In this document: positions 1 to 25,222 of the stretch, one piece after another | Numbering within the stretch: the first letter of the stretch is position 1 | How the letters are laid out: every line of letters starts with the position of its first letter | From: Actinomycetota bacterium | Lineage (GTDB): Bacteria; Actinomycetota; AC-67 | Reading direction: 5' to 3' | DNA: 64,000 nucleotides | Assembly (NCBI GenBank): GCA_041658565.1 | Contig: JBAZZY010000010.1 | Location: forward strand, 11,881-75,880 | Position numbers and translations under genes: made by a program | Notes under the pieces: model-generated | Told to the model about the DNA's origin: nothing | Database searches by the model: none | What the model saw: the letters and a program-made list of their open reading frames with translations, nothing else

Positions 1-1311
1 GTGGTGTGGATCATCGACCGCAATGTCACCGGAACGCGGCTCGGGCGCGCGCTTCACGGGATCCGCGAGGACGAGAACGTCGCGGCCTCCTTCGGCGTGG
101 ACGTTCCGCGCTTCAAGCTCACCGCGTTCGTGCTTGCCGGGACACTCGCCGGTGTCGCCGGCGCGCTGCACGCTCCCCTGCTCTCGCTCGCACAGTCCGA
201 GGCGTACACGCTGCAGTTGTCGCTGCAGTTCGTGATCATCGTCGTGGTCGGCGGCCTCGGATCGCGCGTCGGAGTGATGGTCGCCGCGATCTTCTTCGGC
301 GTCCTGCCGGAGGTCTTCGGTTTCTTGCAGGCATGGCAGTTCGCCGTGGGCGCCGGACTACTCGTCTACACGCTCGCGCGCCATCCCGGCGGCATCGCGC
401 AAGCGTTGCGCGAATCGGCCGAGCGCAAGCGTCGTCCCGACGAGGAGGACGACACCGACCGCGGCCTGCCCGATCTGCCGCACGTAAGCGTCGGGCGCGC
501 GCGCCCCGAGTCTCCCGCCGACGGCGTGCTGCTGCGCGCGCGCGACGTCTCGGTTCGCTTCGGAGGGCTGCAGGCACTCGACGGCGCCGAGATCGCAGTC
601 CGCGAGAACTCCATCGCCGGCTTGATCGGACCTAATGGGGCAGGAAAGACCACGTTTTTCAACGTGCTTTCGGGCTTCCAGCCGCACGAGCGCGGACGCG
701 TTGAGTTCCTCGGGCGCGATGTCACCGCACTCGGTCCGCACCGGCGCGCCGCAATGGGCGTCGGACGCACCTTCCAACTCGCCGGGCTCGCGCGCAACCT
801 CTCGGTCGAAGAGAACTTCCTTTTGGCGCAGCACTCTCTGGCCGGCTACGGCGCGATCGAAGCAATCGTTCGCTCGCCGCGCGCGCGCCGCGAGGAGGCC
901 GCGATGCGTCGGCGCGCGCGCGAGGCGCTGGTCGCACTCGGCTTCGAGCGCTACGCCGAGCGCGCGGTGAGCACACTCTCGGGCGGCCAGCAGCGCCTGG
1001 TTGAACTCGGATGCGCGCTGGTCACCGGACCCTCGCTCCTGCTGCTCGACGAACCGTCGGCGGGCCTTAGCCCCGCCGCAACCGAGAGCCTCGCGGAGCG
1101 ACTTCGCACCGTGCGCGACGAACACGGTGTGACCATCTTGTTGATCGAGCACCACATCCCGCTCGTCGCCGCCGTGTGCGACGAAGTCACCGTGTTCAAC
1201 CTCGGAACCCTGCTCGCCTCGGGCCCCACCGCCGACGTGATCGGCAATCCCGCCGTCATCGCAGCCTACTTGGGTGAGGACGCGGCGGCGGACGAGGAGG
1301 CGGTGAAATGA
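1..1311 (+). CDS. Branched-chain amino acid ABC transporter, fused permease (LivM-like C-terminal TM segments) and ATP-binding (LivG-like) protein; 5' end outside window
   Basis: Continuous ORF. N-terminal part is a hydrophobic LivM-type permease tail. After an acidic linker comes a Walker A (GPNGAGKTT), ABC signature (LSGGQQRLVELGCAL) and Walker B (LLLLDEP). Confidence 0.8.
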   Translation: MVWIIDRNVTGTRLGRALHGIREDENVAASFGVDVPRFKLTAFVLAGTLAGVAGALHAPLLSLAQSEAYTLQLSLQFVIIVVVGGLGSRVGVMVAAIFFGVLPEVFGFLQAWQFAVGAGLLVYTLARHPGGIAQALRESAERKRRPDEEDDTDRGLPDLPHVSVGRARPESPADGVLLRARDVSVRFGGLQALDGAEIAVRENSIAGLIGPNGAGKTTFFNVLSGFQPHERGRVEFLGRDVTALGPHRRAAMGVGRTFQLAGLARNLSVEENFLLAQHSLAGYGAIEAIVRSPRARREEAAMRRRAREALVALGFERYAERAVSTLSGGQQRLVELGCALVTGPSLLLLDEPSAGLSPAATESLAERLRTVRDEHGVTILLIEHHIPLVAAVCDEVTVFNLGTLLASGPTADVIGNPAVIAAYLGEDAAADEEAVK

Positions 1312-2087
1312 CCGTCGAAAACCCGATGCTGGAAGTGCGCGGTCTGGTCTCCGGATTCGGCCACAACACCGTTCTGCACGGCGTGAACCTCACCGTCGGG
1401 CGTGGTGAGTTCGCCGCGCTGCTCGGACTCAACGGCGCCGGCAAGTCGGTCACGCTCAAGAACATCTCGGGTTTGCTCACCCCCTGGAAGGGCTCGGTCA
1501 TCCTCGACGGGCGCGACATCACCAAGCTCGACCCGGAAGACCGCGTGCTCGCCGGACTTGGTCACGTCCCCCAGGGACGCCAGGTATTCCCGCACCTGTC
1601 GGTGGCCGAGAACCTGCGCCTCGGCGGCGCGACCGTTCGCGACCGCGCGCGCTACAACGACGCGCTGGCGCGCGTATACGAGTCGTTCCCGCGCTTGGGC
1701 GAGCGCCGCGCGCAACTCGCCGGAACGCTCTCCGGCGGAGAGCAAGCCATGCTCGCGGTCGGGCGCGCGCTCATGCCCTCGCCGCGCCTGGTGCTGATCG
1801 ACGAGCCGTCGGCCGGCCTGTCCCCCATCGCGCTCGCGGAGTTGCTGGGAATCATCCGCGAGGTCAACCGCACCGGGGTGACCGTGCTGATGGTCGAGCA
1901 AAACACAACGTTTACCTTGCGGATCGCAGACACCATCCATGTGATGCAGAAAGGAAGCATCGTGCTGTCATCGGCCGTGTCTGAGTTGTCGGACCCGAAC
2001 GAACTGCTCGCGCACCTCGGCGTCGGCGCGCTCATGCGCGACCGCATCGCGCGCGAAGTTGCCGCGCGCCGCGGCGCGTCTTCCTGA
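1308..2087 (+). CDS. livF: Branched-chain amino acid ABC transporter ATP-binding protein (LivF-type)
   Basis: ATGA overlap with upstream gene. Walker A GLNGAGKS, signature LSGGEQAML, Walker B LVLIDEPS. About 259 aa, typical LivF size. Confidence 0.85.
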   Translation: MTVENPMLEVRGLVSGFGHNTVLHGVNLTVGRGEFAALLGLNGAGKSVTLKNISGLLTPWKGSVILDGRDITKLDPEDRVLAGLGHVPQGRQVFPHLSVAENLRLGGATVRDRARYNDALARVYESFPRLGERRAQLAGTLSGGEQAMLAVGRALMPSPRLVLIDEPSAGLSPIALAELLGIIREVNRTGVTVLMVEQNTTFTLRIADTIHVMQKGSIVLSSAVSELSDPNELLAHLGVGALMRDRIAREVAARRGASS

Positions 2088-2129
2088 GTCCCTACGCGCG
2101 CGCCGTCGACGGTATCGGCATGCCGCACC

Positions 2130-2759
2130 TCAAGGGACCACCACGCCGACCGAATTGGATCTCCAGCCGTCACCCCGGAATGCGGCTGCGCGCGACGGCC
2201 CGACGGCAACCCACGAACCGCTGACCAGATAACGTCCGGACGGCAAGGAGCCGCCGCCACAGACCGATCCGTCCCACGCGACCTCAGCGGAGCCCTCCTC
2301 CCCCGCGCGTAGCACCGCCACCCATGCCGGATGATCGAACTCGCGTCCGAAGGCCCACCGCCACACGACGCCGGAGGCATCCTCCACCCAGAAATCGAAC
2401 TCCTGCTCGCCCTGTTGGTAGGCCAAGTCTGTAGTCCCGCGGTTTCGCGCCGTGAGTCGAAATACCCAGTTGCCGGAATCCCCTTGGACATCCAACCGCA
2501 CCTCGACATCCTTGGGAGCCTTGCCGGCGCGTCCGGGCGATCCACAATCGATGGTCCGGCCAACCGAAGACAGGAGCCCGCGCGACGCATCCACCCTCGG
2601 CTCCTCAGTACCACGACCTCCGGATGAGCAGCCGGAGCCGACGAGAAGAACCAGAGCCAAGCCTGCGGCACCAAGTCGCCCGAGAGACGCACCGAACAGC
2701 CAAGAACTCACAGAATCGTCCACGTTCCACCCCGTTCGCGAGATCAGACTTAGGGCCAC
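2130..2759 (-). CDS. Putative lipoprotein with BsuPI-like (intracellular proteinase inhibitor) beta-sandwich domain
   Basis: N-terminal hydrophobic region ending in a Cys (LLVGSGC). C-terminal ~110 aa follow the BsuPI pattern (VFRLTARNRG…EFDFWVEDASGVVWRW…GRYLVSGSWVA). Lies next to an S1 protease gene. Confidence 0.45.
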   Translation of the reverse strand: MALSLISRTGWNVDDSVSSWLFGASLGRLGAAGLALVLLVGSGCSSGGRGTEEPRVDASRGLLSSVGRTIDCGSPGRAGKAPKDVEVRLDVQGDSGNWVFRLTARNRGTTDLAYQQGEQEFDFWVEDASGVVWRWAFGREFDHPAWVAVLRAGEEGSAEVAWDGSVCGGGSLPSGRYLVSGSWVAVGPSRAAAFRGDGWRSNSVGVVVP

Positions 2760-2965
2760 GCGCGGCAGTTCCCGGGGCGAGGCATGAGCCCGTCCGCTTC
2801 AGGACGCGGTCTACTCCAGGACTCACACCGACCACACGCGACGTTCTCCCAGCGCGGGTATCCCGCCGCCCCGTGCCATCCACGCAAACCCCCGGCGAGC
2901 CCCAGACCACTGGACACAAGGCATCCGACCCGAGCGCGCAGGTCACGAGTCCGCGCTCCGAACGC

Positions 2966-4222
2966 TCAGCAGCTTCCAGCTGCGCATGTGTTCAACGGTC
3001 CGAGTTCTGTCGATAGCTGGATGTTGCCGATCGCCGAGAAATACGAAGTATTCCAGTCGTTCTTGGGGCCGCCCCAGAGAATCCCTTTCAGGTTGACGTC
3101 TCCGACCGGCAGTCCCTCCCGCGCGATCATCGCGCTCCCGCTATCGCCATTGTAGGAAAACGCATTCGTCACGTACTGACAGAGCAGCGTGATGTTCGTC
3201 TCGTCAACATTGATGTCAAGGCATGTGCCCGTGACTGTTCCACTCGAGTAGCCGCTACTCGCACCGACTTTGGCAATTCCGCGTCCCGAGATCGGAGCAG
3301 TCTCACCCTTAACCGTGTACTTGCTCGTCCCGTTCCACGCGGGGACCGGGGGCGGGTCACCGGTTGTCGAAGACGCGGATGCGATCTTGCCTTGCTCAAC
3401 GGTGGCCGTGGGTTGCAGGCTGAAGAAGGCCGAGTCGCTGTATCGACACACTCGCCCTGTTGGGCATCCCATGATCCCTGCGGCGAATTCCGGATCGCGC
3501 TCCTCAGTCCCGACCCACACAGCCACAACTGGTTGCCCCATAACCGTGCCCTCTTCGCCACCCCACGTGTCTGTACAGTGGGAGTTGGTCACGAAACCCT
3601 GCATGGTGCCCATCTTCGCGTTAAACCCTAGGGTGCACCACCCCCACAGGGTCTCAATCTTCAAACCCCCCACCATTGGCCGATGATAATCCTGAAGATT
3701 GCTGCGAAACTGAGGTCGCCTGCCCCGAGCCAGTTTGATCGCGCCTGTCGGAATCCCGACCTCAGCAAGCCTGGCCTCAATCGCAGCCACCTGCTCTGGG
3801 GTGCCGTCCACTTCGATGCGGACGACATTGTCGCGCTCTGCCACATCAGTCGATACCGCCCCCGGCATCGACAGGACTTCCTGGGTCGCGCGGGCTTGCC
3901 ATGTCTTCAACTCCTCAAAGCGGTATGTGCTGGCGACCCCAATGACGGAAAACGTACGTAGGTCCCCGACGACATCGAACAGCGCGTCCGCTGCCTGGAT
4001 GGCAAGGGCTCGATCCCCGCCGACAACGCCGACATATACCCTGTGTAACGCCTCATCTACAAAGGCGCCTGCAAACTCGGGCACCTGGTGCGAAACCTCG
4101 AGGAACACGCCATCGCCAACTGCGGTCACCGATGTTGTTGGGGTGTCCGGTGACGATTCGCTCACCGCGGGAAGAATAAGAAGAAGCACTGTCATCGCGG
4201 AGACAAGGATTCGGCTCATCAC
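2966..4222 (-). CDS. Secreted S1-family serine protease (alpha-lytic protease/streptogrisin-like) with N-terminal propeptide
   Basis: Signal peptide MSRILVSAMTVLLLILPAVS (start chosen at this Met; ORF extends to 4342). Catalytic His context TNSHC, Ser context GDSGS, and C-terminal Cys pairs typical of the S1E family. GC content is clearly lower than surrounding genes. Confidence 0.75.
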   Translation of the reverse strand: MMSRILVSAMTVLLLILPAVSESSPDTPTTSVTAVGDGVFLEVSHQVPEFAGAFVDEALHRVYVGVVGGDRALAIQAADALFDVVGDLRTFSVIGVASTYRFEELKTWQARATQEVLSMPGAVSTDVAERDNVVRIEVDGTPEQVAAIEARLAEVGIPTGAIKLARGRRPQFRSNLQDYHRPMVGGLKIETLWGWCTLGFNAKMGTMQGFVTNSHCTDTWGGEEGTVMGQPVVAVWVGTEERDPEFAAGIMGCPTGRVCRYSDSAFFSLQPTATVEQGKIASASSTTGDPPPVPAWNGTSKYTVKGETAPISGRGIAKVGASSGYSSGTVTGTCLDINVDETNITLLCQYVTNAFSYNGDSGSAMIAREGLPVGDVNLKGILWGGPKNDWNTSYFSAIGNIQLSTELGPLNTCAAGSC

Positions 4223-4330
4223 GCGTCCCCCTTGGGATCGGCAACAGACAGGCAGGCGTTCCGTCCCGGTCGACGCTTTCGGATGCCGAGGATGGATGAG
4301 TGGGCCGACGCCAGGACAAAAGAGTAAATA

Positions 4331-4344
4331 ACACACACACACAC
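4331..4344. repeat. (AC)7 dinucleotide microsatellite about 110 bp upstream of the S1 protease start
   Basis: Direct reading: aaata-acacacacacacac-tgtc. Confidence 0.9.
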
Positions 4345-4404
4345 ACTGTCAAGGGCCCGACGAGGGGCTCGCGAACAACGCGATTCGCTGCTCGTAGGGA
4401 GGCC

Positions 4405-4537
4405 TACGCGCGCGCCGCGCGCGCGACGTTGTCGATCAGCATGGCCACGGTCATTGGGCCGACTCCGCCGGGGACAGGAGTGATCGCGCTCGCGATCTCG
4501 GACACCGGCCCGAAGTCCACGTCGCCGATCAAGCCGG
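4405..4537 (-). repeat. Duplicated folD 3' end (about 133 bp, ~96% identical to 5238..5370), direct repeat copy A; encodes only the last ~44 aa of FolD
   Basis: Near-identical nucleotide run beginning exactly at a stop codon (ctacgcgcgcgccgcgcgcgcgacgttgtcgatcagcatggcc…). Translation [44 protein letters not shown] equals the C-terminus of the intact FolD. Confidence 0.85.
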
Positions 4538-4765
4538 CGCGCGTCGGCGAACGAAGAACAGCCAAACCCAGTACATCGTTACGCCGAAGCCCGGCGCCAG
4601 CAGAATGAGGACGACCCACACCCAAACCCGCGCGCGCGCGGCGTGAACGAGCGACGCGATCGTCACCGACAGCAGGATCAGCGGCAGGACTACGGCCAGG
4701 CCACCTCGCCACGGATCCGACGAGGGGGCCCGCGTGACCTGCGCCCACAGAACTAGCGCGACCAC
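4529..4765 (-). CDS. Small hydrophobic hypothetical protein (78 aa, 2 TM segments); doubtful
   Basis: ORF between the folD repeats. Strongly hydrophobic, but its 3' end runs into repeat copy A. Confidence 0.2.
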
Positions 4766-5124
4766 CGATCCGCAAACCCCGGGTTGAATACCCGAACTCC
4801 AGAGGTTCTCATGGGCAGACTTCCTACGACACGGCTTCCGCTCGGGCTCGCATAGATCGGAATCGACGCTGCGTCCCTTCCCGGGCCAAGGGGATCGGCA
4901 TTCAGGTCATTCTTGTCGACATAGCCGATCGTCTCGCCGTTGGGACCCACCACGCCGATACGGGCCGGCATCTTCGAGAAATCACCCCGCCCGTCGGCGT
5001 CCACCCAAGAGGGCCTTGGTGGGGCGGACCCCGTATCCGTCACAGATGACACAGCGAAGATGCCGCTGAGCACAACGACGATCCCGAGAACGGTCCCGCG
5101 CCTGGATGAGGCTCGCATCTCCAT
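4753..5124 (-). CDS. Small secreted hypothetical protein (123 aa)
   Basis: N-terminal signal-like segment [20 protein letters not shown]. No recognisable domain. Sits inside the segment bracketed by the folD 3' direct repeats. Confidence 0.4.
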
Positions 5125-5237
5125 CCCCTCCTTGGCTCCGTCATGTCGACGGTGTCAACCGCCGCGTCACCGCCCGACTCCCGCGAGAATATTGATGCGG
5201 TGAATATCAATCAAGGGAGCCGCAACCCATGGCCCCG

Positions 5238-6089
5238 TTACGCGCGCGCCGCGCGCGCGACGTTGTCGATCAGCATGGCCACAGTCATTGGGCCGACTCC
5301 GCCGGGGACCGGAGTGATCGCGCTCGCAATCTCGGACACCGGCCCGAAGTCCACGTCGCCGATCAGGCCGCCTTCGGGGCCTTTGTTGGTTCCGACGTCG
5401 ATCACGACGGCGCCGGGCTTCACCATGTCCGCGGTGAGGGCCTTCGCGTGGCCCGCAGCGACAACGATGATGTCGGCCTCGCGCGTGTGGGAGCCGATGT
5501 CGCGCGTGCCGGTGTGGCACAACGTGACGGTCGCGTTCAGGCCCGGGCCCTTCTGTGACAACAGGATCGACAGCGGACGTCCCACCAAGTTCGAGCGCCC
5601 CACCACGACCACGTGACGGCCTTCGACATCGACTTCGCCGCGGTGCAACAACTCGACCACACCTGCCGGGGTTGCGGGAACGAAACGCGGCCGCCCCATG
5701 GCGAGCAGTCCCTGGTTCTCGGGGTGCAATCCGTCCACGTCCTTGGACGGCAGGATCGCGCACTGGATCTCGAAGGGGTCCGCGTCACACACCTTCGGAA
5801 GCGGCAGTTGCACGATGATGCCGTGCACGTTCGGGTCGGCGTTCAGTTCATCGACCGCGCGCAGGATCTCGTCTCGCTTGGCGTCTGCCGGAAGAACGCG
5901 GTCGAACGCGACCATACCGGCGGCAACCGCAGCCTTGTTCTTCATGCGCACATAGGTGGCGGATGCCGGATCCTCGCCGATGAGCAAGTCCACGAAACCC
6001 GGAGTCACACCGGCGCGCGCCACGCGTTCGGCGACCTCGGCGCGCACCTGCGCGGCGATCGCCTTTCCGTCGATTATTCGCGCTGCCAT
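5238..6089 (-). CDS. folD: Bifunctional methylenetetrahydrofolate dehydrogenase/cyclohydrolase FolD
   Basis: [19 protein letters not shown]…YVRMKNKA…GIIVQLPLP…[15 protein letters not shown]. Start taken at MAARIID (ATGA overlap with purH stop). The longer 526-aa ORF is an upstream in-frame extension artefact. Confidence 0.9.
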   Translation of the reverse strand: MAARIIDGKAIAAQVRAEVAERVARAGVTPGFVDLLIGEDPASATYVRMKNKAAVAAGMVAFDRVLPADAKRDEILRAVDELNADPNVHGIIVQLPLPKVCDADPFEIQCAILPSKDVDGLHPENQGLLAMGRPRFVPATPAGVVELLHRGEVDVEGRHVVVVGRSNLVGRPLSILLSQKGPGLNATVTLCHTGTRDIGSHTREADIIVVAAGHAKALTADMVKPGAVVIDVGTNKGPEGGLIGDVDFGPVSEIASAITPVPGGVGPMTVAMLIDNVARAARA

Positions 6090-8268: not shown

Positions 8269-8730
8269 ATGCTACCCGGTCGGCGCAGCACGGCCCGGCG
8301 GAGGTCTACCATGACGGCGATGGCACGCCCGATCGACTTCTCGGCACTCACGCGCGCGGAACGGCTCGTGCTCGCCTCGGGCGCACTCGGCCTCGTCAAC
8401 GGGATGATCCCTTGGTGGTACCGAGCCACGACCTCGCAGGGCACCTTCACCTACAACTCCGGATTGCGCGGATGGGGAGTCGTGGCGGTCCTTGCCGGGG
8501 CCGCTGCGGTCCTCGGTGCGCTGGCGCGCGGCTGGATCTGGCCGCGCTCCGCCCCCCGCCACGACGGCACCGCGTACCTCGTGCTTGCAGCCGTCGCGCT
8601 CGCGGCGCTGTCGGGAGAAGTGGGCGCGCGCGGAGCGTGGATCGGCGTCTGGGTCGCCCTCGCCCTCGCGTTCGCCCTGGGCGCCGCCGCCCTAGCCCGC
8701 CGCGCCGAACGCCGCCGCGGCTGGAGCTGA
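8269..8730 (+). CDS. Hypothetical membrane protein (153 aa, 3-4 TM)
   Basis: Hydrophobic segments. No recognisable motif. Confidence 0.45.
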   Translation: MLPGRRSTARRRSTMTAMARPIDFSALTRAERLVLASGALGLVNGMIPWWYRATTSQGTFTYNSGLRGWGVVAVLAGAAAVLGALARGWIWPRSAPRHDGTAYLVLAAVALAALSGEVGARGAWIGVWVALALAFALGAAALARRAERRRGWS

Positions 8731-8731
8731 A

Positions 8732-8959
8732 CTAAGAAACCCGGCGCTCGAGGCGCTCGGCGATCCAGACCTTGATCACCGACTGTCGAGTTACTCCAAG
8801 ACGCTTCGCCTCACGGTCGAGCGACTCGATCATCCAGGACGGGAAGTCCACGTTCACGCGTCGCTGCTCCTCCCCCGGCCTGCGAGCCTTGGACAGGTCG
8901 AGGTCGGCGGTGACGTCCTCGCCTTTGTCGAACTTACGGTCGAGGTTCTTCGCCTTCAT
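8732..8959 (-). CDS. brnA: BrnA-type antitoxin (ribbon-helix-helix)
   Basis: 75 aa with FDKGEDVTADLDLSKARR…VNVDFPSWMIESLDREAKRLGVTRQSVIKVWIAERL, diagnostic of BrnA. Overlaps the upstream toxin gene. Confidence 0.8.
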   Translation of the reverse strand: MKAKNLDRKFDKGEDVTADLDLSKARRPGEEQRRVNVDFPSWMIESLDREAKRLGVTRQSVIKVWIAERLERRVS

Positions 8960-9224
8960 AGATCGCCACCTCCTCAGCGCGCGCCCTGCGGACCGAAATC
9001 AACCTCACCCTTTGGTCGCGGTCAGTGCAGATCGCCGACCAATGCTGTCCGGCAATCTGCCCAATGACGACGTACCGGGGTTCGTCTTCCGTACGAGCCG
9101 GGATCTCGACGCGCATCTCGTCAGTCCAGATCGCCTGCGCATCGACGAAGTCGATGCCGTGCTTAGCCTTGTTCGTCTCGCTCTTGCGCCGATCGAACTC
9201 GAACTCCACACCCTTGAACTCCAC
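8934..9224 (-). CDS. brnT: BrnT-type toxin (DUF497 ribonuclease)
   Basis: 96 aa. FEFDRRKSETNKAKHGIDFVDAQAIW…YVVIGQ matches the BrnT/DUF497 signature. 26-bp overlap with brnA. Confidence 0.8.
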   Translation of the reverse strand: MEFKGVEFEFDRRKSETNKAKHGIDFVDAQAIWTDEMRVEIPARTEDEPRYVVIGQIAGQHWSAICTDRDQRVRLISVRRARAEEVAIYEGEEPRP

Positions 9225-9246
9225 GCCCAGCCCCTGGTCTCCTCAG

Positions 9247-9259
9247 TATAGAAACTATA
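9247..9259. promoter_or_regulatory. Palindrome tatagAAActata about 25 bp upstream of brnT; candidate BrnA operator
   Basis: Perfect 5-3-5 inverted repeat in an AT-rich intergenic stretch. Confidence 0.3.
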
Positions 9260-9381
9260 CCGTTCCGACGTCTAGATGACCAGAGACAGCTCGGATCCGG
9301 GTCGCCGCGCACCGGTTCCCGCTCCGACCCCGCAGGGACCCTGAAAATCCCACACTCAATGTTCGTTTTTCATGGTACACT

Positions 9382-10569
9382 GTGACCATGATCGAGCGGT
9401 CGCAGTGGCTGGCGGAGTTGAAGGCCGCTCTGCGGCGAAGCCGAGTTGTTGCCCTCATCGGCCCACGTCAGTCCGGCAAGACCACCCTTGCGCGCGCCCT
9501 CGTATCACCCGACTCTCCGAACTACTTCGATTTGGAGGATCCCCGCAGTCTCGCGCGTCTCAACGAACCGATGACCGCCCTCGCACCGCTCAAGGGAACA
9601 GTCGTCATCGACGAGATCCAGCGACGGCCGGAGTTGTTCCCCGTACTGCGCGTACTTGCCGACCGACACCCACTCCCTGCGCGGGTTCTCATTCTCGGCA
9701 GCGCAAGTCCTCCGCTGCTTCGCCAGTCCTCGGAAACGCTCGCCGGACGCCTCGAGACACTGACGCTCGCGGGGTTCGCGCTGGAGGAACTCGGCGCGGG
9801 GGTCCTTCGCAAACACTGGAGGCGAGGAGCATTTCCCCCCGCATACCTCGCTCGTTCCGAAAAGGCGAGCCTGATCTGGCGCGAGCAGTTCATCCACACC
9901 TTCCTCGAGCGCGACGTCCCGCAACTCGGCATCACCATCCCCTCGGCCACGCTTCATCGGTTCTGGACGATGCTGGCGCACTACCACGGAGGGGTCTGGA
10001 ACGCAGCAGCCTTTGCTCGCTCCCTCGGAGTCGCCGAGCCCACAGCGCGACGCTACCTGGATCTCCTCTCCGGGCTGTTCATGGTGCGGCAACTTCAGCC
10101 CTGGCACGAGAACTTGAAGAAGCGCCAGGTCAAGTCGCCGAAGGTGTACGTGCGCGATAGCGGTCTGCTTCACGCTCTCCTCGGTCTGACGACCGAGCAT
10201 GACGTCATGATGCATCCGAAGGTCGGTGCCTCATGGGAAGGCTACGCCCTCGAAGAGACGCTGAAAGCCGTGCGACCGGAGGCCGCCCACTTCTGGGCCA
10301 CACACACAGGCGCCGAACTCGATCTTCTGCTGGTCAAGAACGGAAGGCGCTACGGCGTGGAGTTCAAGCTCCAGGATGCCCCCCGCGTGACGCCCTCGAT
10401 GCGGATCGCGATCAGCGATCTTCAGCTGACTCGGCTGACGGTGCTGTACCCGGGAGACCAGTCCTACGAGCTCGATTCTCGCATCGCCGTTGTCCCTCTT
10501 GCGCATCTGGCAACGGCCGGAGCCGCCGCGGTGACGAAGAAACCGACACCGCGCAAAGCGGCGACCTGA
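9382..10569 (+). CDS. AAA+ ATPase of the COG1373 / AAA_14-DUF4143 family
   Basis: Walker A GPRQSGKTT, Walker B VVIDEIQ, and a C-terminal DUF4143-like region. The upstream region is unusually AT-rich for this genome. Confidence 0.75.
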   Translation: MTMIERSQWLAELKAALRRSRVVALIGPRQSGKTTLARALVSPDSPNYFDLEDPRSLARLNEPMTALAPLKGTVVIDEIQRRPELFPVLRVLADRHPLPARVLILGSASPPLLRQSSETLAGRLETLTLAGFALEELGAGVLRKHWRRGAFPPAYLARSEKASLIWREQFIHTFLERDVPQLGITIPSATLHRFWTMLAHYHGGVWNAAAFARSLGVAEPTARRYLDLLSGLFMVRQLQPWHENLKKRQVKSPKVYVRDSGLLHALLGLTTEHDVMMHPKVGASWEGYALEETLKAVRPEAAHFWATHTGAELDLLLVKNGRRYGVEFKLQDAPRVTPSMRIAISDLQLTRLTVLYPGDQSYELDSRIAVVPLAHLATAGAAAVTKKPTPRKAAT

Positions 10570-10600
10570 CCCCACCGGACCCCTGGCAACAGGGTGGTTT

Positions 10601-11698
10601 CTAGCAGCTGCCTTCGTAGTGGAGATTGTGCTGTTGCTGAACGCCGATCCCCACCCCGACTCCCCCAACCCCGACGAAGTAGGGAACACGGCTCTCGTTG
10701 TTGGCTCGGTTGGGGTCGCTGCCCGAGAAGACTGACGCGTGAACCCAGACGTCTCCAACGACCCCAACGGCGTTCCAGACGAAATCGCATCGCCGGGCAC
10801 CACCTGGATCCAACGCAACGGACACCTCGGCAAGGTCAACGCGGTAGTCCGAATCCGGCTGCGTGACCCACACCCTTAGTCGCGCCTCATCCGGTCCCGT
10901 CCCACGATTTGAAACGTCCACGTGGATTCGCCGACTCAACCCTGTTCCAACCGGCAGAGACATCACCCCGGTTCGGAGAACCTCCTCCTTCACAACCACG
11001 CGATCCACTCCGAAATCCGGCCACGGGACGGCAATCATGACAATGTCGATGTTGCCCGTCTCTTCCCCGAGGGCTACGTGTACGGGTGTCGCTCGAACAG
11101 CGGACGTCTCCCCCTCGTACCACTGGTCGTAGTGGGCGTAGTCGTAGCAGTCATAGAAGTAGACCGTGTATTCGCCGGCAGGAAGACCCCCGATCTCGTA
11201 TCCGCCGCCGGTGTCGGTAAACGTGACGCCGCCCATGGGCTTCCCGTCCATTGAGAAGACGTGCACGCAGATGGCTTGCAGGGCAGAACCGATCTGATCG
11301 ACGACCTCGCCCGATATCGATCCGCCGAACACCATTTGGGCATCGACACGGACTCCACCACCGGCGGGCACCGAGACGGGATCGGCAAAACCGCGGCTGG
11401 GCTTGCCCGAACCCCATTCCTCCAGATAGCGCGTGTAGTACCGACAGTCCGTGAACTGGACCTTGTATGTCCCCGGATCGACGTCCTTGAGCACATACCA
11501 GCCCCTATCGTCTGTCCAGGCCTGATAGGTCGGAACTGTCGCATCGTCGGCCCACGCCGACACGCAAATGTCCTTCAGCGCACCGACTTTGCCGGTGACG
11601 CCGCCATAGATGTTCCCAACGTCCTGCGCGCGCGCAGGGAGAGCGACGGTCAGCGCAAGCAGTGCGACGGTCGCTCCAATACGGAATCCCTTGGTCAT
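10601..11698 (-). CDS. Secreted protein with two internally duplicated beta-sandwich (carboxypeptidase-regulatory/Cna-B-like) domains
   Basis: Signal peptide MTKGFRIGATVALLALTVALPARA. Internal repeat GTYKVQFTDCRYYTRYLEEW vs GEYTVYFYDCYDYAHYDQWYEG. Confidence 0.55.
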   Translation of the reverse strand: MTKGFRIGATVALLALTVALPARAQDVGNIYGGVTGKVGALKDICVSAWADDATVPTYQAWTDDRGWYVLKDVDPGTYKVQFTDCRYYTRYLEEWGSGKPSRGFADPVSVPAGGGVRVDAQMVFGGSISGEVVDQIGSALQAICVHVFSMDGKPMGGVTFTDTGGGYEIGGLPAGEYTVYFYDCYDYAHYDQWYEGETSAVRATPVHVALGEETGNIDIVMIAVPWPDFGVDRVVVKEEVLRTGVMSLPVGTGLSRRIHVDVSNRGTGPDEARLRVWVTQPDSDYRVDLAEVSVALDPGGARRCDFVWNAVGVVGDVWVHASVFSGSDPNRANNESRVPYFVGVGGVGVGIGVQQQHNLHYEGSC

Positions 11699-11829
11699 GC
11701 TCTCTTTCTTCGCCGATCGAACCCCGAAACCCTGCTATCTCCCATGCGACGTCCCATCAAACCCGCGGGGAACTCTACGGGCTCTCGACCCGCGGGCGCC
11801 GGCCTAATTGGCAGACAAGAAACTCGTCC

Positions 11830-11938
11830 TGTTCGTCGCGCGATTGGAGCTCAAACCGCAACTGGACGCAATGACGGTGACGAGCGCGCCACCGACCATT
11901 ACGCCGATCCGATTCCGGAGACCCCCCACGGCCGACAG
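11830..11938 (-). pseudogene. Degenerate duplicate of the 5' end (signal-peptide region) of the beta-propeller lipoprotein gene at 12890..14152
   Basis: About 109 bp, ~93% identical to 14013..14121. Minus-strand translation …VGGLRNRIGVMVGGALVTVIASSCGLSSNRATN then stop, versus the intact gene's GGLRNRIGVMVGGALVAVIASGCGLSFNRATNS. Confidence 0.7.
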
Positions 11939-12048
11939 TTTAGATCTTCCCATCACGTACGCCGCAGACCTGCTTTGTTCTTACCTTGCGGCGAGCCGAA
12001 TGCTGTTGCCCCCGCCCGCCGAAGCGCTGATACCGGCCGCAATGGCGC

Positions 12049-12738
12049 TCAAGCCCCGTTCTTGGCTGGTCTGGTCCGGTGCGCGCGCCCGCGGCCTCGA
12101 GGGCTACTAACGAGCACCGCCGGACCCTCTTCGTGGCCCACATAGGGAACGGCGCTTTCCTGAACGATGCGCGCGACCTCGACCCGCTCCCGATCGCGCT
12201 CCAGGCGCGCGGCCATGCGACGCACTTCGAGAGCTCCGTTGACGGCCGCCAGGAAATCGGCTCCTTTGCCGGCCGGGAGTCCCTCACCGAGCGACGCGGC
12301 GAACCAACGAGTCACGTCGGACCACCGCCAAATGCGCCCTCGGGACTTGAGGTGCGATATCGGGGACGGGAACCCACCCGGGCCGCGCTCGCCGGCTATC
12401 AGAAGTCGTACGCTCTCGCGGGTCCGGCCGGTTCGCTCGGCGATGTCCGCAGCCGTCACGAGATCCTCAGGCTCCACCCGGATCACTCGCAGACCGGGAA
12501 CGGCCGACTCGACTGCCCGCTTCGCCGATCCGACGGCTTCGGCCAACGAGCGAGACCGCCGCGTGAAATCGGCGTACTGGCATCCGTCCACTTCCCCGAA
12601 CGTTGCGTCACCGCAACCGGCATCAAAGAGAGCGTCAACCGCCGCGTCACTGAGCGCGTCCGCGCCCTCCAAAACCAAGGTGAACTCGTAGGTGGCCATC
12701 TCGCTATCTCCTGCCCGCCGCGACGCATCGTGCTTCAC
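12049..12738 (-). CDS. Hypothetical protein with putative helix-turn-helix (likely start MATYEF… near 12699)
   Basis: HTH-like segment TAADIAERTGRTRESVRLLIAG. No family recognised. The 3' end reads antisense through the permease-fragment repeat. Confidence 0.4.
   Translation of the reverse strand: MKHDASRRAGDSEMATYEFTLVLEGADALSDAAVDALFDAGCGDATFGEVDGCQYADFTRRSRSLAEAVGSAKRAVESAVPGLRVIRVEPEDLVTAADIAERTGRTRESVRLLIAGERGPGGFPSPISHLKSRGRIWRWSDVTRWFAASLGEGLPAGKGADFLAAVNGALEVRRMAARLERDRERVEVARIVQESAVPYVGHEEGPAVLVSSPRGRGRAHRTRPAKNGA
12064..12110 (+). repeat. Degenerate duplicate of the 3' end of the ABC-2 permease gene (16606..16661)
   Basis: …ggtctggtccgg[11-bp indel]tgcgcgcgcccgcggcctcgagggctactaa versus …gcgcgcgcccgcggcctcgaaggctactag. 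Encodes …ARARGLEGY*. Confidence 0.65.
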
Positions 12739-12889
12739 CCCAGCGATGTCCCGAAGCGCGCGGACTCACCCACCAGCCGCGCGACTCCGCAAACCGCAAA
12801 GCCGCCTCAACCTCCTTCTTGGGATGGCGCGCGCGCACCCGATCATCGCTCGCCCGTTGGCACTTGTCAACGGCTCGGCGCGGGCCCGT

Positions 12890-14152
12890 CTAACGCGTCG
12901 ACAGGAAGTACGACCTCTGCACCCAAGGAAGCGAGAGGCTCTTCCTGGTGCCGGTCGTCAGATCAACTCGGAAAACGGGCCCGATGGCGGCCCACGGAGT
13001 CTCCCAGCAATCATCGACATTGCATGGACGGGTCTTCGTCAGCACCAGTTCGTCGTTCGACACCCACATCGCATCAACCGCATCATCGGCGACCTTCCGC
13101 TCGGTTCCGACCGCAAGATCGAAAACGTACGCTGCGGGGTGCTTGCCGGACGTGTCGTACGCCAAACGAGTCCCGTCGGGTGAGACCGAGGGCCGCATGG
13201 CGTCGTGACGGACCGCCAGAGTCTGCCTCGACCCAGTCACCGGATCGAACGAATACCACACGCGGCGGGAGTCCAGCTCGGGGGTGGCAAGCTTGTACGA
13301 GTCGCGATAGGTGCTTCGGTAGTAGATCCGGGATCCGTCTGGCGACCACGTGGCAAACGTGCCCTCCCCGGGCGGAGCAACATCGCTGCCGTCCGGTCGA
13401 ACGACGAACATCGTGACCCCGGTGAGCCCGTCGTCGGAGTAGAGAATCTCCTGGACGAGAAGCATCCGCCCATCCGGCGACCAAGATGCTTCCGCATCCT
13501 CGTCCTCTGCCGACTCGCGCAGGGCAGCGTCTCCGAGAGCACCTAGCCGGTGCACCTTGCCGGTCGCACGGCAGTAGTGCATCGCCGTCAGCGCTACCGA
13601 GGACACGTCAACTTCCTGAGACTGAGACCGCGTGAGACTCAGTGCCGACCCGGTGGGATCCCACGCGCCGGGGGTGAAATCCCCTTCGAGCAGGACACGG
13701 CTCTTCCCGGTCCGCAGATCAATCTCTATAACCCGGGATTCGTCATAATCGCCCAGCCCGTAGCTGATCGTTTCCGGACCGGAGAAGTCGGCACCATTGA
13801 CAGCGTGCTTCCCACCTCGCACCAGGCGCCGAGACTTGTCGGTCTTCATGTCGTAGATCCAGAGGTCGTTCGCATAGCCCACGCCGGTGGGCCGCGCAAA
13901 GAGGATCCGCTCGACGCCGCCGGGCGGACGGTCGATGGCAGCGCCGGGGACGACCGGACAGGGACCCACCGACGCTGCCGCGGATGGCGCAGGACTCGAA
14001 GACCCGATGGCGCTGTTCGTCGCGCGATTGAAACTCAAACCGCAACCGGATGCAATGACGGCGACGAGCGCGCCACCGACCATTACGCCGATCCGATTCC
14101 GGAGACCCCCCACGGTCGGAAGTATAGGGCGGCTCCCGGGGGCGCTCATCAT
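12890..14152 (-). CDS. Lipoprotein with TolB-like (PD40/WD40-like) beta-propeller repeats
   Basis: Lipobox-like VAVIASGCG after a positively charged n-region. Repeated SPDGxxL motifs (WSPDGRMLLV, WSPDGSRIYY, VSPDGTRLAY). Start uncertain (14152 or 14083). Confidence 0.7.
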   Translation of the reverse strand: MMSAPGSRPILPTVGGLRNRIGVMVGGALVAVIASGCGLSFNRATNSAIGSSSPAPSAAASVGPCPVVPGAAIDRPPGGVERILFARPTGVGYANDLWIYDMKTDKSRRLVRGGKHAVNGADFSGPETISYGLGDYDESRVIEIDLRTGKSRVLLEGDFTPGAWDPTGSALSLTRSQSQEVDVSSVALTAMHYCRATGKVHRLGALGDAALRESAEDEDAEASWSPDGRMLLVQEILYSDDGLTGVTMFVVRPDGSDVAPPGEGTFATWSPDGSRIYYRSTYRDSYKLATPELDSRRVWYSFDPVTGSRQTLAVRHDAMRPSVSPDGTRLAYDTSGKHPAAYVFDLAVGTERKVADDAVDAMWVSNDELVLTKTRPCNVDDCWETPWAAIGPVFRVDLTTGTRKSLSLPWVQRSYFLSTR

Positions 14153-14287
14153 CGGCGTGCACTGAGGACGGACGACGCATTGAAGTTCCACACTCGTCGG
14201 CACCGTGCCTCTATTTCTGGAGATGCTCCGCAGCGACAGAGGTAGGCTCTGCTCGGCCGTACGCAAGTCGAAGCGCTGGGATCAGCA

Positions 14288-15076
14288 ATGATCGCGTGTG
14301 AGAGTGTCTCAAAGACGTACCGGATCCGAGACCGCCTCGGGTGGTTCCGGCGCGGTCCAGCGCGCGCCATCCCGGCGCTGCACGAGGTCTCGCTCAGCAT
14401 CGAGCAAGGTGAGATCGTCGGGCTGCTCGGCCCGAACGGCGCCGGCAAGACCACCTTGCTGAAGATCTTGTGCACGCTGGTGCTTCCAGACGCCGGGCGC
14501 GCGCACGTCGGCGGCTTCGATGTCGCATGCGACGCGCGCGCGGCGCGCATGGCGATCGGGTTCGTTCCGGCGAGCGATCGCAGTCTGCACTGGAAGCTCA
14601 CGGCCCGCGAGAACCTCGCGCTCTACGGCGGGCTCTACAACCTGTCCCGCTCCACCGTGCGCTCACGTTCGCATGGGACCCTAGCGAACGTCGGCCTCGC
14701 GGACTTCGTCGACGTCCCTGTCGAGAAGTTCTCAACCGGGATGCGCAAGCGCCTCATGCTCGCGCGCGCCTTGCTGCACAACCCGGCTGTGCTCCTTCTG
14801 GACGAACCGGGAAGCGGCCTGGACGTGCTCGGTAAGCGCGAGATGTGGACATCGCTGCGGCAAGCGGCCGCCGAGCACGGCGTCACCACGCTCATTGCGA
14901 CGCACGACATGGAAGAGGCCGAAGTACTTCCCGAGCGACTGCTGCTCATCGATCGCGGAACTTTGCGCGCGGACGGGACGGCCACCGATCTGCGCCGGCG
15001 CGCAGGGCGGGAAGATCAAAGCCTCGGCGACGCATTCCTCGCTCTCACCGGAAGCTCACTTGAGGACTCCGAATGA
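14288..15076 (+). CDS. ABC transporter ATP-binding protein (ABC-2/DrrA-like)
   Basis: Walker A GPNGAGKTT, signature FSTGMRKRLMLARAL, Walker B LLLDEPGSGLD. Confidence 0.85.
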   Translation: MIACESVSKTYRIRDRLGWFRRGPARAIPALHEVSLSIEQGEIVGLLGPNGAGKTTLLKILCTLVLPDAGRAHVGGFDVACDARAARMAIGFVPASDRSLHWKLTARENLALYGGLYNLSRSTVRSRSHGTLANVGLADFVDVPVEKFSTGMRKRLMLARALLHNPAVLLLDEPGSGLDVLGKREMWTSLRQAAAEHGVTTLIATHDMEEAEVLPERLLLIDRGTLRADGTATDLRRRAGREDQSLGDAFLALTGSSLEDSE

Positions 15077-15831
15077 GAGCTGTGCTTGCCCTGCTGCGCG
15101 CCGAGATGCTGCGCCGGCGCGCGTATCCGCTTCAGATCCTCGGCCTGACGCTCAGCCCCTTTCTTGTCGTCGGCCCGTTCGTGTTCGTCGGGACGATGTT
15201 CCCGGACCCGAAGGTGCGAACATCGGTCGCCGTGGGCACGATCCTTTGGTACTGGCTCTCGATGTTGTTCTGGGGAGTCGGTTTCGGAATCCGCGAAGAG
15301 ATGGAAGAGGGCGTATTCGAGAGCATCGCGGCAACACCGGCGCGCCTCCAGTCGCTGCTGGCCGCCAAGGCGCTGGACGTCCTCGCCGGCAACATCTACT
15401 TGACTGTGTGCACCTTTGCGCTCCTTCGCTGGACGGCGAACGTGACGGTGGCCGTCCCGTGGAGCCGCATCGTGCCGGTAGTGATGGCGGCCGCGTTCGC
15501 GCTTTCGGCGCTCGCCGTGGCTTACGCGGCACTCGTTCTGGCTACCCGGCAGGCTTCTGGGATTGGATCCATGACGCAGCAAGCTCTCGGAGCGCTCTCC
15601 GGCATGACGGCGCCCGTCTCGACGCTCCCGCGCGCCGCCCGATGGGCAAGCGCAGCCGTGCCGCTCACGTACGCAATCCAGGGCGCGCGCGCGGCCCTGG
15701 AAGGACGATGGCCGTGGAGCGAAATAGCCGTCTTGGCGGCCTTCGGAACCGGGATGCTGGTAGTCGGTCTGGCGGTCTTTGCGCACGCCGAGCGGCGCGC
15801 GCGCACTACGGGAACGCTCGGGGAGTATTGA
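15073..15831 (+). CDS. ABC-2 family transporter permease
   Basis: 252 aa, six hydrophobic segments. ATGA overlaps on both sides. Confidence 0.75.
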   Translation: MRAVLALLRAEMLRRRAYPLQILGLTLSPFLVVGPFVFVGTMFPDPKVRTSVAVGTILWYWLSMLFWGVGFGIREEMEEGVFESIAATPARLQSLLAAKALDVLAGNIYLTVCTFALLRWTANVTVAVPWSRIVPVVMAAAFALSALAVAYAALVLATRQASGIGSMTQQALGALSGMTAPVSTLPRAARWASAAVPLTYAIQGARAALEGRWPWSEIAVLAAFGTGMLVVGLAVFAHAERRARTTGTLGEY

Positions 15832-16661
15832 TGGCGGCTTTTGAAGCGACGTTGCGAGGGTCGGCAGCCCTGGCTGCAGCATCGCTTCGCGGACGTTCTC
15901 GCTACCGGCTGGACTACATCACGTCCACCGTCGGTCCACTGCTGTGGGTTATCCCCGCGCTCCTCACGCTTCGCTTTGCTGAAAGCTTGGGAATGGGTGA
16001 TGCGTTCAAGGATGCAACCGGGATCGCGCGTTCGCGCGCGCCGCTTTACTTCCTCGCCGGTGCCGTCTACTGGAACTACGTGGAGGGCGTCTGGAGCCTC
16101 GCCATGAACGTGCGCGGAGCGATGCGCAGCGGAACGCTCGAACCGCTTTGGTGCACGCCGGTCCCGCGCCTCGCGCTGGTTGCCGGCTGGTCGGCGGGAA
16201 CCCTGGCCTCAATCACCCTGCAGTCGGCAATCGCGTTCGCCCTCCTCGCGATCGTGGGTGGAACGCCGCCGGTCGTTTCCTGGGTGGGGGTCGCTGCGCT
16301 GTTGGCGGGATCGGTGCTGGCCGCATACGGCTTCGCGTTCGTGTTGATCGGCCTCACTCTTCGTTTCCGAGATGCCGAATCGATCGTGAGCATGCTCGGG
16401 AACGCCGCTCCGCTTCTCGGGGGCGTCATCTTCCCCGTGGCGCTTCTGCCACTCCCCCTGCGCCTTCTCAGCTATCTCTTCCCATTCACCTACGGCGCAG
16501 ACTTGCTCCGTTCGCTCTTGGCCGGAAGCCGCACACTGCTGCCCGCACACGTCGAGGTGCTGGTCCTGGCCGCCATGGCAGTCGTGCTCCCGGTGCTCGG
16601 CTGGTGGGGTCTGGTCCGGCTCGAGCGCGGTGCGCGCGCCCGCGGCCTCGAAGGCTACTAG
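15831..16661 (+). CDS. ABC-2 family transporter permease (second)
   Basis: About 276 aa, polytopic. Start MAAFEATLRG overlaps the upstream stop (ATGA). C-terminus …RARGLEGY is the copy duplicated at 12064..12110. Confidence 0.75.
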   Translation: MAAFEATLRGSAALAAASLRGRSRYRLDYITSTVGPLLWVIPALLTLRFAESLGMGDAFKDATGIARSRAPLYFLAGAVYWNYVEGVWSLAMNVRGAMRSGTLEPLWCTPVPRLALVAGWSAGTLASITLQSAIAFALLAIVGGTPPVVSWVGVAALLAGSVLAAYGFAFVLIGLTLRFRDAESIVSMLGNAAPLLGGVIFPVALLPLPLRLLSYLFPFTYGADLLRSLLAGSRTLLPAHVEVLVLAAMAVVLPVLGWWGLVRLERGARARGLEGY

Positions 16662-16778
16662 CCGATTGCTCGACCGGTCATCGTTACGCAATGCGCGCGA
16701 ACGACCGGAAAAGCAAGGACCTAACAAATAGCCTTTTCGGGGCATGGAATCGGCTTCGCACCGTGAAGAGAATGAGGC

Positions 16779-18032: not shown

Positions 18033-18207
18033 GCAGCCCTATCGAACCGGCCCGGGCGCCGGGACACCTCGGACGTTTCGCCTACTCCTTCGGCTGCGCG
18101 TCAACCCGATCCGATCATTCGATGACCATCCTGCCCGGAATCACTTCAGCCACGCGCTACGGCGCTCGATGCCTACGAGCGAGATGGGGTAATAGGGGAG
18201 GACTACC

Positions 18208-20679: not shown

Positions 20680-20729
20680 CCCTACAACTACGCCGGCACT
20701 CCGGCTCGTCGCATCCCCGCCACTCGCCG

Positions 20730-23303: not shown

Positions 23304-23306
23304 AAC

Positions 23307-25055: not shown

Positions 25056-25202
25056 AGCAATGCCTCCGCGTCGTTCTCGTACGTCTATGTACGGAGCCCA
25101 CCAATCCCGGAAACATGGCCTCCCGCCGTCATTCCACGCGCGCGCAGCCACTACGCGAGCTATCGATCTCTCTAACTACGCCGGCGTGATCGCTCCATGC
25201 TT

Positions 25203-25222
25203 CATGAGGCGGCTGCCTCATG
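25203..25222. promoter_or_regulatory. 20-bp dyad catgaggc-N4-gcctcatg in the divergent intergenic region between the W-tailed subtilase and the LuxR-type regulator; candidate LuxR/FixJ-family box
   Basis: Perfect 8-bp inverted arms. Each arm contains the self-palindrome tcatga. Confidence 0.3.

Follow-up and report, generated by a model that had tools for sequence, protein, structure and literature searches.

A secreted S1 protease and a recurrent BsuPI-domain partner encoded in an uncultured actinobacterium: a candidate protease–inhibitor module

When the gene of a secreted protease is followed, on the same strand, by that of a small lipoprotein with a BsuPI-type domain, are the two proteins partners, and, if so, does the second inhibit the first? 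The question is raised by a locus in a 64,000-nucleotide stretch of DNA (hereafter the window; positions 11,881 to 75,880 of contig JBAZZY010000010.1) that belongs to the metagenome-assembled genome (MAG) of an uncultured member of the Actinomycetota, where it lies on an 87-kb contig (ENA ERZ27247322 k141_606729). A first-pass annotation of the window had described the locus as a low-GC islet, acquired horizontally, in which an S1 alpha-lytic-type protease is accompanied by its own BsuPI-like inhibitor lipoprotein, and in which a microsatellite upstream of the protease gene could vary expression by slippage. The claimed gene pair is indeed present, as two minus-strand open reading frames (ORFs), and every element described can be found at the locus:

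2966-4219, minus strand: S1 protease precursor, 417 amino acids (aa), NCBI locus WDA27_07165
2130-2759, minus strand: BsuPI-like partner, longest ORF 209 aa

The overall picture is that the protease and its BsuPI partner form a recurrent, co-inherited module. That this module consists of a secreted S1 protease and a membrane-tethered BsuPI inhibitor, with the mechanism, origin and expression proposed below, is a fuller reading that we hold to be somewhat probable and far from assured.

The evidence that carries the first of these statements comes from gene neighbourhoods. Loci that encode homologues of the protease, 80 from genomes and 80 from metagenomes, were scanned across all of their ORFs with a hidden Markov model built from the relatives of the partner, and the count of pairs was limited to the 137 loci with at least 600 bp of downstream sequence (76 genome and 61 metagenome loci). 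A BsuPI-like ORF lies directly downstream of the protease homologue, on the same strand, at 20 of the 137 (4/76 genome and 16/61 metagenome loci). Additional pairs occur at the locus of homologue P0009, where the BsuPI gene is downstream, at loci L004, L111 and L150, where it is upstream, and at L101, where it is downstream and partial; looked up individually, a BsuPI gene directly follows P0009 and another stands ~800 bp before P0002, and none is found near P0005. Three of the cases outside the count are either immediately upstream or truncated by the end of a contig. The adjacency is strict, such that all of the 20 or more BsuPI matches in ~1.25 Mb of related loci adjoin the protease gene on its own strand, and the ~812 kb of non-adjacent flank in these loci contains no match at all. 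The identity of the partners is confirmed by the Pfam profile PF12690 in 20 of 21 cases (E ≤ 1e-3). The paired loci are found in Acidobacteriota, Bipolaricaulota, Actinomycetota and unbinned metagenome contigs, and the partner-bearing proteases sit in the clades nearest to the protease of the window.

Moreover, the two proteins diverge together. Among 19 pairs, which represent 17 clusters below 90% identity, the distances between the proteases correlate with those between the partners (Mantel r = 0.876, p ≤ 2e-4), and the partner of the window is closest to the partner at L004, the locus whose protease is P0002. Because of this strict adjacency and co-divergence, the two genes are to be seen as a co-inherited module and not as chance neighbours; in other words, the claim that they are a cognate pair stands, with adjacency in several phyla behind it. 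A search of the literature on BsuPI proteins and on immunity to alpha-lytic protease, of limited coverage, gave no report of an S1–BsuPI gene pair. Only one member of the BsuPI family has been studied biochemically, and Rigden et al. 2013 (PMC3901451) report no gene-neighbourhood link between the family and a protease. As far as that limited search reaches, the pairing is the first gene-neighbourhood link of the family to a specific protease, and its strict recurrence makes it a concrete, testable enzyme–partner pair.

What, then, is the protease? Its principal features, as read from the sequence and from an AlphaFold (AF2) model with a predicted local distance difference test (pLDDT) of 84.5 and a predicted template modelling score (pTM) of 0.84, are these:

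Protease residues ~1-22: signal peptide, MSRILVSAMTVLLLILPAVS-ES, a Sec signal by inspection
Protease residues ~36-171 (~145 aa): N-terminal alpha/beta domain in the AlphaFold model
Protease residues 173-177: low-confidence linker in the AlphaFold model
Protease residues from ~181: alpha-lytic-type catalytic domain, a beta-barrel
3578-3580: H214, in the context TNSHC
3434-3436: D262, in the context YSDSAF
3140-3142: S360, in the context GDSGS

In an alignment of 27 homologues, H214, D262 and S360 are invariant and follow one another in the order His-Asp-Ser; several cysteines are also invariant, and positions of the N-terminal region are conserved too. A phmmer search against PDB sequences matches alpha-lytic protease to the protein (E = 2e-6), with the VGG motif at residue 184 aligned to the start of the mature enzyme. 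The best Foldseek matches of the catalytic domain are alpha-lytic protease and the Lysobacter L1 and L5 enzymes (E ~3e-13, 24% identity), and the structures 1GBA, 2ALP and 3M7U are matched at E ~1e-12 to 3e-13 with template modelling (TM) scores of 0.78-0.82 on the target. By its catalytic domain, therefore, the sequence and the model both make the protein an S1 protease of the alpha-lytic type with predicted proteolytic activity, and the first-pass name for it is right as far as that domain is concerned.

The whole chain tells a wider story. With it as the query, the best PDB match is rice NARROW LEAF 1 (NAL1; PDB 7Y77, 8HAS, 8PMG), which includes the N-terminal domain and extends over ~380 columns (E = 3e-15, TM score ~0.5; 8PMI and 7Y77 at E ~1e-14 to 3e-15 over a like number of columns); indeed, the N-terminal domain aligns better with plant NAL1 than with alpha-lytic protease. 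The likeness has its bounds, however, in an identity of 18%, a root-mean-square deviation of ~8 Å and a match to Pfam Nal1_C (PF25819) that is marginal, at 26.3 bits against a cut-off of 26.1. Furthermore, NAL1 is an intracellular plant enzyme that lacks a signal peptide and forms hexamers, whereas the protein of the window is a bacterial secreted precursor. With alpha-lytic protease from Lysobacter enzymogenes and the streptogrisin-type enzymes (MEROPS S1E; 2ALP, 1SGP, 2PFE, 5MRR), to which its identity is the 24% given above, it shares the catalytic fold, the His-Asp-Ser triad, a disulfide that brackets the His and a large N-terminal region within a secreted precursor, and with alpha-lytic protease itself the VGG start. 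It departs from them in having insertions and extra conserved Cys pairs (C252/C258 and C412/C417), in a Trypsin_2 score of 17.6 bits that lies under the cut-off of 27.6, and in giving no match to the alpha-lytic pro-domain (Pfam PF02983) at E ≤ 1; there is likewise no match to Trypsin (PF00089) or to any NCBIfam model. We know of no inhibitor partner gene for alpha-lytic protease.

The protease is, in fact, a member of a separate, uncharacterised family of ~420 aa whose members are annotated only as ‘S1 family peptidase’ or ‘hypothetical’. In a search of 5.8 billion clustered proteins its closest non-self homologue, P0002 at locus L004, is 41-42% identical. Loci of the family are found in Acidobacteriota, Bipolaricaulota, Myxococcota, Chloroflexota, Deinococcota, Gemmatimonadota, Methylocystis, Nitrosovibrio and a few Actinomycetota. 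This points to a large uncharacterised group of secreted bacterial proteases that, among prokaryotic proteins, come nearest in structure to plant NAL1.

The partner is more readily placed. Pfam PF12690 (BsuPI) matches its residues 86-182 (2214-2504), over profile positions 2-95 of 101, with E = 3.8e-8 and 33.6 bits against a gathering score of 22.9. The AlphaFold model of the protein (pLDDT 83.6, and above 90 across the BsuPI domain) has as its best PDB match in Foldseek 3ISY, which is IPI of Bacillus subtilis (E = 1.2e-7, TM score 0.81 on the target), and the next folds, all of them generic beta-sandwiches (GH3 C-terminal domains, transglutaminase, RbmA), are ~1000-fold weaker. Its relatives in sequence are distant, the best at E = 4e-16 and none above 40% identity in an exhaustive HMMER search of 1.84 billion representatives. 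Upstream of the BsuPI domain runs a lipoprotein-type signal, ...SLGRLGAAGLALVLLVGSG-C, that ends in a lipobox-like LLVGSG-C:

2628-2630: lipobox-like Cys44; ...GLALVLLVGSG-C44 fits a relaxed PROSITE-type pattern by eye, the start codon being uncertain

The likely start is a GTG at 2723 or 2711, both in frame. The public gene call, of 154 aa, starts at 2594 and leaves the signal out, and the deposited annotation, in which the segment 2594-2759 is missing, is probably truncated at the N-terminus. The longer form is favoured because the partners of homologous proteases all carry either a lipobox or an N-terminal transmembrane helix: lipoboxes are clear at L006 (LVTGC), L008 (GSNGC), L010, L097, L105, L109, L114, L120 and L129, and an N-terminal transmembrane helix takes their place at L004 and L014. 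The actinobacterial subtype of partner has, moreover, a conserved Cys pair, which fits with an exported protein. The earlier description of the neighbour is supported as to its BsuPI fold, by the profile match and the top fold match, and as to a lipoprotein-type signal. At one locus in a Micromonosporaceae MAG (L009, 1610-2065) the protease homologue is followed by a lipoprotein of ~150 aa (LVATGC) with no match to BsuPI or to any other Pfam family, which may be an analogous partner of a different fold.

How might the two proteins act on one another? On the reading to which we incline, the protease would be exported via its signal peptide, and its N-terminal domain, to judge from alpha-lytic protease, would assist folding and/or keep the enzyme inactive. 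The mature enzyme would then act outside the cell, in bacteriolysis or in the scavenging of protein. The partner, for its part, would be held as a lipoprotein on the outer face of the cytoplasmic membrane, where the tethered BsuPI domain would bind the protease tightly at the cell surface and block the active site, sparing the producer's own envelope. The folds, the catalytic triad, the export signals on both proteins, the recurrent adjacency and the co-divergence on which this proposal builds are directly supported. Inhibition, a role in self-protection and co-transcription of the two genes we infer.

In this regard, the comparison that matters most is with IPI, a member of the same Pfam family with the same fold, which inhibits the subtilisin Isp1 with a Ki of ~1e-9 M (Rigden et al. 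2013, PMC3901451). A lipoprotein signal is possible in both proteins, since for IPI a potential upstream start would encode MKRLLVMLLPVLLLIGC, with a lipobox (LLIGC), so that IPI may itself be a lipoprotein (PMC3901451). The partner is, however, only 16% identical to IPI, and its neighbour is an S1 enzyme and not a subtilisin. Moreover, according to PMC3901451, IPI homologues in complete genomes are never found in the neighbourhood of a subtilisin gene, unlike the partner subfamily, which adjoins its presumed target directly.

Several observations weigh against an inhibitor module. The inhibitor status of BsuPI/IPI proteins is disputed, the founding member included, and the family has been dropped from MEROPS (formerly I22) as its members may be competing substrates or general binders (PMC3901451). 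The one target that has been characterised for the family belongs to the subtilisins (S8) and is not an S1 enzyme. The partner accompanies only ~15-25% of the protease homologues and is not obligatory. The gap between the two genes in the window, at 206-255 nt, exceeds that at other loci; no terminator-like site was found within it. When the test is turned around and made from the side of the partner, one relative, P0124, stands beside an extracytoplasmic function (ECF) sigma factor and an integrase, and another, P0127, follows an unannotated ORF of 846 aa. From these contexts it appears that BsuPI proteins overall are not always linked to proteases, and that only the subfamily of the partner is.

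These points bear differently on the rival explanations of the pair. It could be argued that the genes are unrelated neighbours and that the BsuPI match reflects a generic immunoglobulin-like beta-sandwich, for the fold does belong to a large class of beta-sandwiches, to which the weaker matches named above also belong, and BsuPI-domain proteins are found in other contexts too. Such a view fails to account for the BsuPI matches all adjoining a protease gene, with none elsewhere, or for the lead of 3ISY over the next fold and a Pfam score over the gathering threshold; the neighbourhood statistics effectively refute it, and we regard it as highly improbable. A better alternative is that the partnership is true but that the partner is no inhibitor, and serves instead as a surface anchor or scaffold, as a helper in folding or maturation, or as a sensor or substrate that signals across the membrane. 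Lipoprotein maturation helpers do exist, as in the case of PrtM, which matures the lactococcal protease PrtP. The partners at L004 and L014 have a cytoplasmic N-terminal segment followed by a transmembrane helix, and a related transmembrane protein with a BsuPI domain stands beside an ECF sigma factor, which recalls the architecture of anti-sigma factors. On the other hand, the partner of the window is a plain lipoprotein that lacks a cytoplasmic domain, as are the partners of the L006, L008 and L010 types. The protease also has an N-terminal domain, and in enzymes of the alpha-lytic type it is usually such a domain that helps folding. In addition, studies cited in PMC3901451 report that IPI inhibits a serine protease at the nanomolar level. 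On balance we think a non-inhibitory role rather unlikely, and the preferred reading of the partner remains that of a tethered inhibitor. To go further, and to hold that BsuPI/IPI lipoproteins are dedicated surface immunity inhibitors of the widespread NAL1-like/alpha-lytic-like secreted S1 proteases, that these and not subtilisins are the natural targets of the family, and that in the window the module is also switched by slippage in a (GT)n promoter spacer, is a bolder proposition that we consider doubtful.

One of the closest sequence relatives of the partner lies at L089 (4001-5392). It is a membrane protein of 276 aa whose C-terminal part is the BsuPI domain, and its gene is immediately followed by an ECF sigma-factor gene and then by a phage-type integrase gene. 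This arrangement is a hint that proteins with a BsuPI domain serve, in some cases, as anti-sigma factors or sensors, and some members of the family may have a role in signalling.

Pairs of a secreted protease and a cognate binder are known in other operons, which include serralysin-type AprA–AprI or PrtA–Inh, staphopain–staphostatin and SpeB–Spi. The logic is the same, in that the gene of a secreted protease is followed by that of a small, protective binder, and the partner likewise sits in the compartment through which the protease passes. The folds are unrelated, however, the enzymes are metallo- or cysteine proteases and the inhibitors are soluble periplasmic or cytoplasmic proteins, whereas the partner in the window is membrane-tethered. 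The pairing of an S1 enzyme with a tethered BsuPI protein is thus a variation on a known theme, at the level of annotation, and it changes no major paradigm. Should inhibition prove true, soil and sediment bacteria would have a new protease/immunity pairing, which could also be a source of specific inhibitors of alpha-lytic-type enzymes.

The next part of the question is where the pair came from. The first-pass annotation had spoken of a 70% GC genome; the G+C content of the window is 0.66, i.e. 66%. The 1-kb bin at 3001-4000 has the lowest value of all 64 bins, at 0.600. For comparison between genes, ~50 ORFs were chosen by the rule that G+C at the third codon position (GC3) exceeds that at the first (GC1), which in turn exceeds that at the second (GC2), and these ORFs cover 88% of the window. 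Among them the protease gene ranks last both in G+C (0.597) and in GC3 (0.67), so that it is indeed less GC-rich than its neighbours, and the partner gene has the second-lowest GC3 (0.70). Relative to the 42 further ORFs that reach 150 aa or more, the protease gene has z = -2.8 for G+C and -2.9 for GC3, and the partner gene z = +0.1 for G+C, which at 0.66 is ordinary, and -2.1 for GC3. The ‘low-GC islet’ therefore holds for the protease gene but not, in overall G+C, for its partner. By codon usage (Karlin B distance) the protease and partner genes rank 5th and 7th of 44, so that their codon bias is elevated without being extreme; windowed composition agrees with the earlier claim that the protease gene is poorer in GC. 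GC1 of the protease gene is low too (0.60), which reflects amino-acid composition. In sum, the compositional deviation is real but moderate, and the drop in raw G+C is confined to the protease gene and the region upstream of it.

Gene order provides a second line of evidence, for which the surroundings of the pair are as follows:

8450-7662, minus strand: purN
7630-6089, minus strand: purH
6089-5238, minus strand: folD
4753-5118, minus strand: 121-aa ORF, small, with a hydrophobic N-terminus or transmembrane segment
4529-4765, minus strand: 78-aa ORF, small, with a hydrophobic N-terminus or transmembrane segment
4405-4536, minus strand: orphan copy of the folD 3' end (last 44 codons)
1308-2087, plus strand: ABC-transporter (ATP-binding cassette) ATPase gene, convergent

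Three relatives whose FolD is 80-82% identical to that of the window share the order sucCD-purN-purH-folD-glyoxalase-CBS-citrate synthase-icd-mdh-S8 peptidase-trpS. The window keeps purN-purH-folD and none of the block downstream, and collinearity stops exactly at the folD stop codon; the relatives carry a different block after folD and are too distant to define the boundaries of an insertion. Beyond this break lies the orphan folD copy, 132 nt long and 97% identical to 5239-5370, which ends exactly at a stop codon, as the intact copy does. It is found 834 bp further on and 52 nt upstream of the -35 hexamer of the protease gene (see below), and its identity rests on a match of the translated fragment to Pfam THF_DHG_CYH_C, with which an alignment of the relatives' folD genes and tblastn agree. 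This duplicate looks like the scar of an insertion or recombination at the folD 3' end, of the attachment-site type. The two copies of the repeat bracket only the ~700-bp insert with its two ORFs (4537-5238), and not the protease pair. The 121-aa and 78-aa ORFs of the insert match nothing in Pfam, NCBIfam or PADLOC, and it is uncertain whether the insert belongs to the protease module. At the locus there is also no match to PADLOC defence models, tblastn of the protease and the 121-aa ORF against 72,556 plasmids gives none, Rfam at E ≤ 1 gives none over 1900-5500, and the hairpins that follow the orphan folD fragment, the intact folD and the partner gene are no better than those of shuffled sequence.

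Two further observations can be made on gene order. In the three relatives sucC-sucD lies directly upstream of purN, whereas in the window sucD is at ~27469-27885, ~19 kb from purN (8450); the stretch between them (8450-27900) contains a gene for a BrnT-type toxin and an AAA_14/DUF4143 gene, with a G+C content of 0.59-0.63 at 9-12 kb, and may be a second inserted block. In the same relatives a gene for a large secreted S8 (subtilisin-type) peptidase (L086 13192-15630, L087 7899-10226, L088 7584-10031) lies a few kb downstream of folD, where the window loses collinearity.

The last part of the question concerns the repeat upstream of the protease gene. It had been given as (AC)7; it is (AC)8. 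All other dinucleotide repeats in the window are shorter, and no other non-GC one reaches six units. It was right to call it unusual, as it occurs in none of 100 dinucleotide-preserving shuffles. Also correct was its distance of ~110 bp from the protease start, which is 111 nt from the ATG at 4219. The first-pass interval for the protease ran on upstream as far as this repeat, the gene itself being 2966-4219. The elements of the upstream region, read from the raw sequence, are:

4347-4352, minus strand: TTGACA, a perfect -35-type hexamer that directly abuts the repeat
4331-4346: (GT)8 on the protease coding strand, i.e. (AC)8 on the plus strand
4325-4330, minus strand: TATTTA, candidate -10, preceded by TGT
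4226-4233, minus strand: Shine-Dalgarno-like AAGGGGGA, 6 nt before the protease ATG

The coding strand reads GGGCCC-TTGACA-(GT)8-TATTTA-CTCTTTTG, such that (GT)8 exactly fills a 16-nt spacer between TTGACA and TATTTA and its end provides a TGn extended -10 motif. The candidate -10 lies in the sole A+T-rich patch of the intergenic region, and is weak in that the T at position 6 is missing. Transcription of the protease gene would, on this weak showing, probably start at a promoter in which (GT)8 is the whole spacer, and it could be supposed that the gain or loss of one unit, giving a spacer of 18 or 14 nt, would alter expression. Phase variation through a (GT)n spacer is, on this reading of the sequence, a hypothesis. 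An alternative -10, TACTCT, fits TAnnnT; its spacer would be 20 nt and it is not preferred. Another perfect TTGACA occurs at 5153-5158, after the folD stop, and the 121-aa ORF has its ATG 34 nt further downstream, so that a consensus -35 hexamer is present in each of the two intergenic regions of the islet; in the window as a whole there are eight on both strands, three of them intergenic.

Promoters in which a simple-sequence repeat fills the -35/-10 spacer, and which are phase-variable in consequence, are those of hifA/hifB in Haemophilus influenzae, with (TA)n, and of porA (poly-G) and opc (poly-C) in Neisseria meningitidis. The arrangement in the window is alike in that respect, and differs from them in that its promoter is putative, with a weak -10, and in the lack of length polymorphism between two assemblies. 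No such switch is known to us in uncultured high-G+C actinobacteria, and a true one would, to our knowledge, be an unusual instance of simple-sequence phase variation in a high-G+C actinobacterium.

It remains to weigh acquisition and switching against simpler accounts. That the low G+C of the locus stems from the amino-acid make-up and the weak codon adaptation of a rarely expressed, long-resident protease gene, and not from recent transfer, is a possibility we rate as the less probable, but not by any means as negligible. It would explain the low GC1, the ordinary overall G+C of the partner gene and the unexceptional codon bias. Two further facts point the same way and speak against transfer: there is neither an integrase nor a transposase in 2130-5238 nor a tRNA nearby (nor, by search, anywhere in the window), and the protease homologues are themselves the lowest-GC3 gene locally in several unrelated hosts, at L004, L014, L009, L006 and L008, from which it may be that low GC is in part a trait of the family or of a frequently transferred module. 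Long residence is harder to reconcile with the absence of any homologue above 41% identity among the 5.8 billion proteins, with nearest relatives that lie in other phyla, with the fact that both genes have their best partner-bearing match in a single foreign locus, L004, and with a synteny break at the folD stop that lies beside a duplicated folD 3' end. Horizontal acquisition into a rearrangement-prone site just past folD is, therefore, likely but unproven: the atypical GC3, the remoteness of the homologues, their scatter across phyla, the break in synteny and the folD duplicate support the first-pass claim, but the want of a mobility gene, the distance of the relatives (only ~80% in FolD) and the low GC3 in other hosts do not. 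For the repeat the balance tips the other way, and we think it fairly probable that (AC)8 is a neutral product of slippage, or a rearrangement scar by the folD fragment, with no role in expression and with TTGACA in its position by accident. No more than 58 nt, after all, separate the tract from the point at which the folD duplicate ends. A consensus promoter scan of 1900-5400, which requires the T at position 6, calls no promoter of the sigma-70 type; over 4434 bases, (GT)8 included, there is no difference between the ENA ERZ27247322 assembly and Logan SRR8449812 (locus L002), which are perhaps not independent of each other as samples; and repeats are not enriched upstream of the gene at the 160 homologous loci (6 in 92 kb there and 63 in 1252 kb overall). 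A search of Joint Genome Institute metagenome contigs for the exact flanks with a repeat of variable length gave 0 matches, and a look-up of the 154-aa partner protein for a third assembly gave nothing on record. Against a neutral origin stand the scarcity of TTGACA (only the eight copies in 128 kb of both strands, one of them exactly abutting the repeat), for which adjacency by chance is estimated at ~1e-3, and a repeat length equal to a functional 16-nt spacer that is followed by the sole A+T-rich stretch of the intergenic region.

A final observation concerns the surroundings of the protease family in other genomes. In several phyla, protease homologues have genes for large regulators of the BTAD/TPR/NB-ARC type no more than a few kb away (L003 2441-5698, L004 5788-6174, L008 590-3241, L019 1978-4221, and also L049, L054 and L068), and these may be a shared regulatory partner of the protease family.

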